In this document: one piece after another, positions 2 to 377 of the stretch
Position numbering within the stretch: the first letter of the stretch is position 1
How the letters are laid out: each line of letters opens with the position of its first letter
NCBI RefSeq assembly: GCF_003334815.1
Contig: NZ_QOWO01000132.1
Origin: Escherichia coli
GTDB lineage: Bacteria > Pseudomonadota > Gammaproteobacteria > Enterobacterales > Enterobacteriaceae
Strand: one strand, 5' to 3'
Length of the DNA: 377 nt
The notes under the pieces: model-generated
What the model saw: the letters and a program-made list of their open reading frames with translations, nothing else
What the model was told of the DNA's origin: nothing
The model's database searches: none
Made by a program: the position numbers and the translations under genes

Positions 2-77
2 TGGTGGGTCGTGCAGGATTCGAACCTGCGACCAATTGATTAAAAGTCAACTGCTCTACCAACTGAGCTAACGACCC
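2..77 (-). tRNA. lysZ: tRNA-Lys, anticodon UUU, complete 76-nt gene with encoded 3' CCA
   Basis: Reverse complement of 2-77 reads GGGTCGTTAGCTCAGTTGGTAGAGCAGTTGACTTTTAATCAATTGGTCGCAGGTTCGAATCCTGCACGACCCACCA. This folds as a cloverleaf: acceptor stem GGGTCGT/ACGACCC, D-arm GCTC/GAGC, anticodon stem GTTGA/TCAAT with loop CTTTTAA (anticodon TTT is plus 42-44 aaa), T-arm GCAGG/CCTGC with TTCGAAT loop, then discriminator A and CCA. It matches the E. coli tRNA-Lys(UUU) sequence as I recall it. The lysZ label rests only on the recalled 146-nt lysY-lysZ spacing and is tentative. Confidence 0.95.
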
Positions 78-111
78 ATACGGGTGTTACCTGAAAGATT
101 TTTACTCGGGG

Positions 112-128
112 CCAATCTTTAAGATTGG
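112..128 (-). other. Hairpin (7-bp stem, 3-nt loop) overlapping the CCA end of the partial tRNA-Lys copy
   Basis: Plus 112-118 ccaatct pairs with plus 122-128 agattgg; loop is 119-121 tta. In the minus-strand transcript CCAAUCU-UAA-AGAUUGG, the first CCA is the CCA of the tRNA 3' fragment. Confidence 0.45.
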
Positions 129-143
129 TGGGTCGTGCAGGAT
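125..143 (-). repeat. Partial copy of the tRNA-Lys 3' end (18 nt of the gene including CCA, plus 1 flanking nt) embedded in the spacer
   Basis: Plus 125-143 ttggtgggtcgtgcaggat is identical to plus 1-19. Positions 126-143 are the reverse complement of ATCCTGCACGACCCACCA, the last 18 nt of tRNA-Lys. Identity ends at 144 (g versus t in the real gene). It matches the Lys 3' end, not the Val 3' end (tggtgggtgatgacggg). Confidence 0.85.
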
Positions 144-157
144 GACTCGCTTCGCTC

Positions 158-184
158 GCCCTACGGGCCGTTGCTGGCGCAACG
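158..184 (-). other. Two adjacent short GC-rich hairpins in the middle of the spacer
   Basis: Plus 169-174 cgttgc pairs with 179-184 gcaacg (6 bp, loop 175-178 tggc). Plus 158-161 gccc pairs with 165-168 gggc (4 bp, loop 162-164 tac). Both are perfect inverted repeats read directly from the sequence. Confidence 0.4.
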
Positions 185-197
185 TTATCCTTCACGC

Positions 198-220
198 TTA
201 ACATCTGAGTTTGATGTTAA
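198..220 (-). other. Hairpin (8-bp stem, 7-nt loop) starting 3 nt downstream of the lysY-position tRNA 3' CCA
   Basis: Plus 198-205 ttaacatc is the exact reverse complement of plus 213-220 gatgttaa; loop is 206-212 tgagttt. In the minus-strand transcript this is UUAACAUC-AAACUCA-GAUGUUAA. The stem is AU-rich (6 AU, 2 GC), so only moderately stable. No U-tract follows it. Confidence 0.5.
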
Positions 221-223
221 AAC

Positions 224-299
224 TGGTGGGTCGTGCAGGATTCGAACCTGCGACCAATTGATTAAAAGTCAACTGCTCTACCAACTGAGCTAACGACCC
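224..299 (-). tRNA. lysY: tRNA-Lys, anticodon UUU, complete 76-nt gene with encoded 3' CCA
   Basis: Plus 224-299 is identical base for base to plus 2-77, so the same cloverleaf and anticodon apply (anticodon is plus 264-266 aaa). It lies 3 nt downstream, in the transcription direction, of the tRNA-Val gene. The lysY label is from the recalled valZ-lysY 3-nt spacing and is tentative. Confidence 0.95.
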
Positions 300-302
300 G
301 AG

Positions 303-377
303 TGGTGGGTGATGACGGGATCGAACCGCCGACCCCCTCCTTGTAAGGGAGGTGCTCTCCCAGCTGAGCTAATCACC
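303..377 (-). tRNA. valZ: tRNA-Val, anticodon UAC, truncated by the window edge (75 of 76 nt present; the 5' terminal G is outside the window)
   Basis: Reverse complement of 303-377 reads GGTGATTAGCTCAGCTGGGAGAGCACCTCCCTTACAAGGAGGGGGTCGGCGGTTCGATCCCGTCATCACCCACCA. Anticodon stem CCTCC/GGAGG with loop CTTACAA gives anticodon TAC (plus 343-345 gta); T-arm GGCGG/CCGTC with TTCGATC loop; acceptor 3' strand ATCACCC plus discriminator A and CCA. It matches E. coli tRNA-Val(UAC) as recalled, minus the first G. The valZ label is tentative and based on operon context. Confidence 0.93.

Follow-up and report, generated by a model that had tools for sequence, protein, structure and literature searches.

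A conserved predicted stem-loop takes in the CCA of a tRNA-Lys 3' end in the lysY-lysZ spacer of the Escherichia coli lysT operon

Introduction

The lysT operon of Escherichia coli yields one transcript of about 1,100 nt, from which RNase P removes the terminator first and then cuts the 5' ends of the tRNAs in the 3'-to-5' direction (Agrawal, Mohanty and Kushner, 2014; PMC4176162). The Lys pre-tRNAs have trailers of up to 150 nt, which are removed by RNase II and PNPase, and then by RNase T; cleavage by RNase P is poor when the 3' trailer is long (PMC4176162). RNase E cuts the long spacers, including at a site described as "upstream of lysZ", only when RNase P is inactive, and what protects the nascent transcript was stated to be unclear (PMC4176162). 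When the stem-loop of a terminator lies next to the CCA, RNase P is inhibited for as long as the stem-loop is in place (Mohanty & Kushner, 2008; PMC2241853). The usual site of RNase E is 1-3 nt past the CCA (PMC2241853, Table 3), and efficient RNase E sites at CCAG/UUUUA (the slash marking the cut) are listed for both lysY and lysW (PMC2241853).

Here, we examine a short hairpin in the spacer between lysY and lysZ, the 5' arm of which begins with the CCA of a duplicated tRNA-Lys 3' end. Full-text searches of the literature found no prior description of this hairpin. We have compared it across the Enterobacterales, traced it to the 3' trailer of functional tRNA-Lys genes, and weighed the roles that it might play in the processing of the operon.

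Results

The window, by which we mean the whole stretch of 377 nt analyzed here, is the reverse complement of the valZ-lysY-spacer-lysZ segment of the lysT tRNA operon of E. coli (Table 1). It is 100% identical to E. coli K-12 and is matched in all 5,426 complete E. coli genomes. ARAGORN and Rfam detect three full tRNA genes only, and the 18-nt fragment in the spacer, made up of T-stem and the 3' strand of the acceptor, is not scored as a tRNA. The gap between the two Lys genes is 146 nt long and contains a match to Rfam family RF00391 (RtT RNA), which covers positions 126-292 on the minus strand with a score of 54.4 bits, against a gathering score of 45. The match stops at position 126, with the CCA of the hairpin inside it and the loop and the 3' arm outside. 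There are five RF00391 copies in the K-12 operon, found in all four long spacers of the lysT operon and after lysQ. The RtT-like elements of K-12 end in GAGUCAUCCUGCACGACCCACCA, and their last 18 nt are identical to the 3' end of tRNA-Lys; accordingly, the pseudo-end in the window agrees with the tRNA-Lys 3' end at 18/18 nt, as is characteristic of the endings of the RtT family. A second and separate hairpin begins 4 nt past the real CCA of lysY, and the RNase E site of lysY mentioned above lies at its foot (PMC2241853).

Table 1. Coordinates of the features in the window
Feature	Position	Strand	Details	Source
tRNA-Val(UAC) gene valZ	303..377	-	One base short at the window end	ARAGORN, Rfam
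tRNA-Lys(UUU) gene lysY	224..299	-	Real CCA at 226..224	ARAGORN, Rfam
tRNA-Lys(UUU) gene lysZ	2..77	-		ARAGORN, Rfam
5' acceptor strand of lysZ plus U-1	78..71	-	Complementary to the pseudo-acceptor, 136..129	
CCA hairpin	112..128	-	5' arm CCAAUCU 128..122, loop UAA 121..119, 3' arm AGAUUGG 118..112	
Pseudo-end, 18-nt exact duplicate of the tRNA-Lys 3' end (ATCCTGCACGACCCACCA, AUCCUGCACGACCCACCA)	126..143	-		
RtT-like repeat unit, 98 nt	126..223	-	From the first base past the real lysY CCA to the pseudo-CCA	
Probable ancestral Lys-to-Lys spacer ("type A"), 48 nt	78..125	-	Remainder of the hairpin plus leader	
Leader CCCCGAGUAAAAAUCUUUCAGGUAACACCCGUAU, up to lysZ	111..78	-	Sequence conserved, unstructured	
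Second, separate hairpin UUAACAUC-AAACUCA-GAUGUUAA	198..220	-	Start of the RtT-like unit; 5' arm 220..213	

On the plus strand of the window the inverted repeat reads ccaatct (112-118), tta (119-121) and agattgg (122-128); because the tRNA genes lie on the minus strand, the transcript is read from 128 down to 112, as 5'-CCAAUCU-UAA-AGAUUGG-3'. The CCA at 128..126 is at once the end of the 18-nt copy of the tRNA-Lys 3' end and the first three bases of the hairpin, which confirms the reading of a first-pass annotation of this DNA, that the repeat ccaatct/agattgg uses the CCA of the fragment as the start of its 5' arm. A repeat finder returned arms of 8 + 8 nt with 1 nt between them; a 1-nt loop being impossible, the real stem is one of 7 bp closed by a loop of 3 nt. 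The predicted energy of the hairpin is -6.0 kcal/mol alone and -7.1 kcal/mol with its flanks. The stem is part of both the MFE and the centroid structures, whether the 146-nt spacer or the whole window is folded, with predicted pair probabilities of 0.98-1.0 for six of the pairs and 0.81 for the seventh. An alternative pairing, of 91-100 with 114-123, was not recovered across species by RNAalifold and was discarded. When the spacer is dinucleotide-shuffled, 3.6% of the shuffles contain, anywhere, a perfectly paired stem of 7 bp or more with a 3-8 nt loop. At this chance rate the single sequence is suggestive only, and the decisive evidence is comparative.

The stem has two G-C pairs and is followed directly on its 3' side by CCCCGAG; it starts at C74, in an operon the RNase P dependence of which has been published (PMC4176162). 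With so few G-C pairs, no U-tract, and no terminator-like site on the minus strand, it does not have the makings of an intrinsic terminator; the scan found terminator-like matches on the antisense strand only, and no sigma-70-like site. An open reading frame of 54 aa (40..204, minus strand) crosses the hairpin. It starts in the RtT-like unit, which is dispensable, and runs into lysZ, the differences in loop and spacer length are not multiples of 3, and G·U pairs occur in the stem; a coding function was rejected on these grounds. A phage origin was also rejected, since the fragment plus hairpin has no exact match in viral contigs.

For the comparison, one genome per species was scanned with a pattern whose two anchors were the pseudo-end and the beginning of the following tRNA-Lys; between them, 28-58 nt were left free, with no constraint on the hairpin region. 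The scan found 60 loci, nearly all of them labeled Enterobacterales, with 82 matches and 70 distinct trailers. These trailers form classes, one of which, type A, contains the homologues of the window and is made up of a hairpin, CCGAGUAAAA..UUCAGG..ACCCGnAU, and tRNA-Lys. The criterion for picking type-A trailers was the downstream motif, regardless of the hairpin. The 27 distinct ones, 23 of which follow pseudo-ends and 4 real tRNA-Lys, come from about 20 enterobacterial genera and were aligned with MAFFT (alignment A1). In all 27, a stem of 5 bp or more takes up the whole CCA (23/23 at pseudo-ends and 4/4 at real ends), whereas shuffling the first 24 bases of the trailer produces a whole-CCA stem of that length in 5.5-7.2% of cases. 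The 5' arm nearly always starts at the CCA, while the sequences of the arms vary: CCAAUC/GAUUGG, CCAAUU/AAUUGG, CCAUCU/AGAUGG and CCACUU/AAGUGG are found, as well as CCACCA/UGGUGG, CCAAA/UUUGG and CCAGUU/GAUUGG. The UGG opposite the CCA is invariant in the 27 trailers, and in 20/25 the base that comes next, a U, pairs with the discriminator A73. Local folding pairs the CCA in 27/27, at -3.8 to -9.0 kcal/mol. Moreover, RNAalifold recovers the stem from 22 full trailers with no structure imposed; in the leader downstream of the hairpin, the sequence of which is conserved, it finds no conserved structure.

On the MAFFT alignment, 91.5% of the cells of the 7-bp stem are paired, as compared to 22-55% in controls with slid 3' partners. 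Both sides are changed in 18 cells, against 4.5 +/- 2.2 in shuffles (0/500) and at most 6 in the slid controls, and the covariation score is 0.318, against 0.118 in shuffles (0/500). Several pair types occur at stem position 4 (AU16/CG4/UA3/GU2), position 5 (UA19/UG4/CG2/AU1/GU1) and position 6 (UA7/CG5/UG5/AU2). Two of the five covariation measures do not clearly exceed the shuffles; pairs with a change on both sides number 3 against 2.6 in shuffles (266/500), and further pair types 11 against 8.0 (11/500). Because the sequences are related and the structure tested was derived from one member of the alignment, the conclusion was not rested on the alignment measures of covariation alone, and three independent checks, the local folds, RNAalifold and the class-by-class count, agree with them. 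The stem is made of base pairs maintained by compensatory and wobble substitutions, as expected for a conserved RNA structure. Its wobbles comprise 14 G·U and no A·C, and the loop ranges from 3 to 9 nt across type A; this fits a structure in an RNA of the same sense as the tRNAs, rather than in an antisense RNA or a palindrome in the DNA. The strand-symmetric complementarity and fixed spacing of the arms that mark a DNA palindrome were not found.

Judged from these alignments, the hairpin is very probably under selection at the level of RNA. The first-pass annotation had left room for coincidence and had named, as the check, a comparative alignment for compensatory changes; with the stem conserved, positions 4-6 covarying and the CCA paired throughout type A, coincidence is excluded. 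We regard it as very improbable that the repeat has no function in RNA, be it as a palindrome arisen by chance, a neutral remnant of duplication, or a site for protein binding or recombination in the DNA. Recombination classically targets the 3' ends of tRNAs, there is an 18-nt direct repeat at the borders of the RtT-like unit, and, as seen above, a single 7-bp stem is only modestly unlikely to arise by chance; however, none of this would account for compensatory changes at three positions of the stem, for the wobbles being G·U and never A·C, for a loop of variable length, or for an incidence of 27/27 where shuffles give about 6%, and there is neither a promoter-like site nor, on the transcribed strand, a terminator.

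Pairing of the CCA is not a general property of E. coli tRNA trailers. Among 42 other tRNA 3' ends of K-12, which represent twelve operons or loci, only three have a contiguous helix of 5 bp or more that touches the CCA, and these are weak or spurious (argX; thrU, in which the arm is the next tRNA; and asnW, which is weak). A stem with the full CCA is absent from the lysZ-lysQ type of trailer (0/19; pseudo-ends of this type, 0/14) and rare next to terminators (1/26 terminator-type pseudo-ends). It is present in about 20% of the Lys-to-Val spacers, and in 16% of the real ends that precede an RtT-like unit, where a commoner pairing, CCACC/GGUGG, covers C74-C75 only. Within lysT-type operons, it is universal in type-A spacers only. 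The CCA-pairing stems of the long Lys-to-Val spacers have unrelated arms, ACCCACC/GGUGGGU in K-12, and elsewhere CCACCACU/GGUGGUGG or CCAUCU/AGGUGG. On the trailers compared, pairing of the CCA is tied to the tRNA-Lys 3' ends of the lysT operon family, and not to E. coli tRNAs generally.

Since the full-CCA hairpin is universal in one class of spacer only, its function could belong to the spacer module, leader included. The hairpin and the conserved, single-stranded CCGAGUAAAA..UUCAGG..ACCCGnAU would then act jointly as a leader for the downstream tRNA-Lys, for example as a boundary that positions the backup cut by RNase E or that insulates the folding of the next of five identical tRNAs, and the CCA would have been recruited only as the sole source of G-C pairs at the start of a short, A/U-rich spacer. 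In line with this, all 27 of the spacers that bear the leader have the hairpin, the leader is conserved in sequence without a conserved structure, tandem identical tRNAs mispair readily in silico, and the RNase E cut "upstream of lysZ" is made when RNase P is inactive (PMC4176162). Long Lys-to-Val spacers, however, carry CCA-pairing stems with different arms next to an unrelated leader, and the type-A stem never begins downstream of C74, even though nothing in principle would prevent a hairpin from forming elsewhere in the spacer. A joint module of this kind is, in our estimation, unlikely.

A homologous hairpin is found on real tRNA-Lys genes in E. coli E69, Salmonella diarizonae, Pseudocitrobacter, Citrobacter amalonaticus and an Enterobacter. 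In E. coli HCP4S3_I4, the identical CCAAUCUUAAAGAUUGG lies on the CCA of an annotated tRNA-Lys that is followed by a 48-nt spacer. The operon map is Val-Lys-98-psi[hairpin]-124-Lys in K-12 and Val-Lys[hairpin]-124-Lys in E69, and the 146-nt spacer of K-12 is exactly the 98-nt unit plus the 48-nt spacer found in E69. An RtT-like unit of about 98-100 nt, bounded by the 18-nt direct repeat, is thus present or absent at orthologous positions, while the hairpin and its distance to the next tRNA-Lys are fixed; the indel varies between species and also between strains of E. coli. The commonest allele, carried by about 1,490 of the 2,431 genomes matched by megablast and about 97% identical to the query, keeps the RtT-like unit; its pseudo-acceptor has decayed (GACACACCA), with the CCA and the hairpin untouched. 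In every context the 5' arm is the CCA, often together with A73, of whichever tRNA-Lys 3' end adjoins upstream, and the inner pairs of the stem drift and are repaired by compensatory change. It appears, then, that the hairpin of K-12 lies on a duplicated tRNA end because a 98-nt repeat was inserted between the gene and its trailer. Its occurrence on functional CCAs without an RtT-like unit implies that it predates the pseudo-end context and is independent of it. In all likelihood, the hairpin is the ancestral 3'-trailer stem-loop of a functional tRNA-Lys. As far as can be read from the genomes compared, the pseudo-end inherits the hairpin wherever an RtT-like unit lies between gene and trailer, and the hairpin is not an adaptation to the pseudo-end.

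This history bears on the two roles suggested by the first-pass annotation, both of which concern the pseudo-end: that the hairpin hides the pseudo-CCA, as a potential decoy, from enzymes that recognize CCA ends, or that it prevents mispairing with the next acceptor stem. The enzymes concerned would be RNase P, 3' exonucleases or the CCA-adding enzyme. Of the type-A hairpins, 23/27 lie on pseudo-ends, where they are no weaker than on real ends, and the common E. coli allele has lost the pseudo-acceptor and yet retains both CCA and hairpin. In addition, the annotated RttR of the tyrT operon ends exactly on a pseudo-CCA, which means that a pseudo-end can be treated in the manner of a tRNA 3' end. 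Against the masking of a decoy, the same or a homologous hairpin pairs the CCA of functional tRNA-Lys where there is no RtT-like unit, and other classes of pseudo-end do without it, namely those of the lysZ-lysQ and terminator types counted above. Prevention of mispairing does not agree with the structure either, as the K-12 stem covers the CCA only; the acceptor-derived GACCCA is left single-stranded, and the pairing GACCC/GGGUC co-exists with the hairpin in RNAalifold, so the stem cannot prevent it. We consider a role confined to the pseudo-end, of either kind, to be quite unlikely.

Another possibility is that the hairpin acts as an exonuclease stop. Once cleavage had occurred at the next tRNA, RNase II and PNPase would trim the single-stranded leader back to this 3'-protective stem-loop, which would define and stabilize the 3' end of an RtT-like spacer RNA or of an intermediate of pre-tRNA-Lys. 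The hairpin is suitably placed, at the 3' boundary of the RtT-like unit, and RtT of the tyrT operon is annotated as a processed RNA. The efficient RNase E site 1 nt past the real CCA of lysY could release the spacer (PMC2241853), and lysT trailers are reportedly removed by the two exonucleases in question (PMC4176162). However, in published Northern blots, probes 8 and 9 for the lysY-lysZ spacer revealed no small stable RNA in the wild type and detected precursors only, in RNase P mutants (PMC4176162), which leaves a stable spacer sRNA unsupported. The hairpin is also found where there is no RtT-like unit; on a real tRNA, protection of the CCA by a stem would hinder maturation rather than help it, and the stem is weak and A/U-rich. 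The probability of an exonuclease stop therefore seems low to us.

Discussion

The explanation that we narrowly favor overall is that of a conserved Lys-to-Lys 3'-trailer stem-loop that masks the CCA junction. Bacterial RNase P RNA contacts single-stranded RCCA. In the polycistronic transcript of 1.1 kb, the CCA and the A/U-rich first bases of the trailer would be double-stranded and flush with the acceptor stem, and the hairpin would keep RNase P from making its RCCA contact and RNase E from reaching its usual site, 1-3 nt past the CCA. Access would be restored only after RNase P had cut at the next tRNA and 3' exonucleases had removed the trailer. In this way, the hairpin would contribute to the order in which lysT is processed, 3'-to-5' and one tRNA at a time. 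Before processing, the CCA junction of the transcript is probably held double-stranded by the hairpin, in keeping with the published order of cleavage by RNase P. That it works by masking sites from RNase P and RNase E, or by ordering their cuts, is a more tentative proposal, which we favor over the other roles considered but hold to be less likely than not. The weakness of the stem (-3.8 to -9.0 kcal/mol across the trailers) counts against it. Furthermore, the real CCA of lysY in K-12 is unmasked and has an efficient RNase E site, and thus the order of processing in K-12 cannot depend on this hairpin alone.

Masking of any internal CCA, real or pseudo, may be the property that is selected in both contexts. 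Possibly, although we are inclined to doubt it, trailer hairpins that sequester the CCA serve as a timing device, hiding each internal CCA from RNase E and from the CCA-binding loop of RNase P, such that RNase P starts at the sole exposed 3' end and works backwards, one tRNA at a time. If so, they would provide a structural basis for both the 3'-to-5' order and the protection of the nascent lysT transcript, and would explain the unchanged persistence of the hairpin on the pseudo-end after insertion of the RtT-like unit. Were the proposed role correct, 17 nt would offer a mutable handle on the question of why processing of the lysT and valU operons by RNase P proceeds strictly from the 3' end, and an encoded CCA could be deliberately masked in a precursor; were it incorrect, what is left is a small conserved spacer hairpin and nothing more.

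In any event, the comparison clarifies the nature of the RtT-like repeats, which are precise indels of about 98 nt with a copy of the tRNA 3' end, 18 nt long, at the boundary, and which are polymorphic even within E. coli. As these units are indels between a tRNA gene and its trailer, they produce "tRNA fragments" in spacers with flanking structure that appears purposeful.

How does the hairpin relate to known systems? It adjoins an element that matches the RtT RNA/RttR family of the tyrT operon (RF00391) above the gathering score, and each lysT copy of this element ends in the 3'-terminal bases of the cognate tRNA, including the CCA, much as RttR of tyrT ends on CCCCCACCACCA. Nevertheless, the hairpin is outside the family model, which ends at the A of the CCA, and exists without an RtT-like unit; in tyrT, unlike in type A, the CCA is left unpaired by the trailer (UCACUUUCAAAAGU) that follows it at both the real and the pseudo end. 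A precursor with its CCA held in a helix that competes with the CCA contact of RNase P has also been described: according to Kirsebom and colleagues, the 3' CCA of pre-tRNA-Tyr su3 reportedly pairs with the 5' leader, and RNase P is said to open this pairing via the RCCA-L15 interaction. The partner of the CCA in su3 would thus be the 5' leader of the same tRNA, whereas in the lysY-lysZ spacer it is the 3' trailer, in a separate local hairpin. Like 3'ETS-leuZ, a spacer-derived RNA of a tRNA operon that is annotated next to leuZ in K-12, the spacer is a conserved non-tRNA segment of a tRNA precursor, but one that gives no stable RNA in the wild type (PMC4176162).

The terminator hairpins that follow the CCA of the last tRNA in secG-leuU, metT, valU and lysT delay RNase P (PMC2241853, PMC4176162). 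In common with the hairpin described here, they place a stem-loop no more than a few bases from an encoded CCA, in a polycistronic tRNA transcript that depends on RNase P; the lysY-lysZ hairpin differs in being internal, short and A/U-rich (about -6 kcal/mol), in having no U-tract, and in using the CCA itself as part of an arm. By analogy, it is these terminator hairpins that it would most resemble in function, and it is, in kind, a conserved structured trailer of a pre-tRNA.

Presence and absence of RtT-like units in the lysT operon

The 18-nt tRNA-Lys 3' end forms the boundary of the RtT-like indels. Each Lys 3' end of the lysT operon is polymorphic for the presence of a unit, both between genera and among E. 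coli strains; the lysZ-lysQ spacer, for example, measures 33 nt in E. coli 2013C-3033 and HCP4S3_I4 versus 132 nt in K-12. In the lysT operon locus that includes lysQ (L001), the copy 3' of lysQ (2115-2240) is labelled 'RtT sRNA, processed from tyrT transcript' by PGAP, despite its actual place in the lysT operon, and it terminates in the tRNA-Lys 3' end plus a second copy of the lysQ terminator. PGAP leaves the four internal copies unannotated.

Features of the window and of compared loci
Feature	Location	Strand	Remark
Second hairpin, UUAACAUC-AAACUCA-GAUGUUAA	window 198-220	-	start of RtT-like unit
RtT-like units, 98-100 nt	window 126-223; L001, L021, L072, L073 and other loci		precise presence/absence indels
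Mutated pseudo-acceptor	L072 (E. coli 2013C-3033), counterpart of window 126-136		commonest allele
Leader, CCCCGAGUAAAAAUCUUUCAGGUAACACCCGUAU	window 78-111	-	cross-genus sequence conservation
Hairpin ACUAAC-AUA-GUUAGU	L001 1159-1175 and homologues		short Lys-to-Val spacers

The second hairpin, whose first base lies 4 nt 3' of the real lysY CCA, shows compensatory changes between genera in its arms (e.g., UUAACGUC/GACGUUAA), and CCAG↓UUUUA, at its 5' foot, is a site that RNase E cuts with high efficiency according to published work (PMC2241853). The leader that precedes lysZ is strongly conserved in sequence between genera, without conserved structure. It is similar to the initial ~35 nt of the RtT-like units (GGUAGUAAAACGUGAAGGAUAACG), which suggests a shared origin and may also hint at a partner that recognises the sequence, for instance RNase E, a protein or an sRNA.

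Pairing of the pseudo-acceptor and of the main hairpin

The acceptor strand of the duplicated tRNA-Lys 3' end, or pseudo-acceptor (ACGACCCA, 129-136), is complementary at 8/8 positions to U-1 and the 5' acceptor strand of lysZ (71-78), 50 nt downstream, and a GACCC/GGGUC pairing between the two is retained in the RNAalifold consensus. The pseudo-acceptor could act as a transient trap of the lysZ 5' end in the nascent transcript. Megablast matched 2,431 of the 5,426 complete E. coli genomes; the commonest allele in this matching set (~1,490 genomes) has the pseudo-acceptor GACACACCA in place of GACCCACCA, and carries GAGUAGAAA in the leader; its CCA and main hairpin (CCAAUCU-UAA-AGAUUGG) are the same as in the window. 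The 3' arm of the main hairpin has an alternative pairing with the downstream AAUCUUUCAG (114-123 with 91-100; 10 nt, 90%), which is absent from the cross-species consensus fold. AAGATT occurs as a direct repeat at 95-100 and 121-126.

Related arrangements in other loci

The hairpin of the short Lys-to-Val spacers is distinct from the main hairpin; it begins at A76 of a pseudo-CCA or a real CCA, and has a compensatory form, ACUGAC/GUCAGU, in Citrobacter amalonaticus. In four Photorhabdus loci (L002, L012, L053 and L056), tRNA-Lys genes form long arrays together with pseudo-ends and degenerate tRNA-Lys starts (e.g., AGAUAGAUCGUU); in these arrays, CCAUCU 3' of the pseudo-end is complementary to AGAU joined with the GG of the next tRNA. 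The K-12 serV-argV-argY-argZ-argQ operon (L069), which may be another repeat-bearing tRNA operon, also has two spacers of 198 nt, and its Arg trailers have CCAUAUUCUCCG..CUUCAGCAAUGAAGG in common. A typical enterobacterial lysT-type operon, with the hairpin of the Lys-to-Lys spacer class homologous to the window (type A), was found on a contig labelled Chryseobacterium sp. 18061 (L038), probably reflecting contamination or a mislabelled assembly.

A 54-aa arginine-rich ORF (window 40-204, - strand) starts within the RtT-like unit and extends into the lysZ gene. The ORF lacks credibility as a gene, and is reminiscent of 'tpr', the doubtful ORF annotated inside the tyrT RtT.
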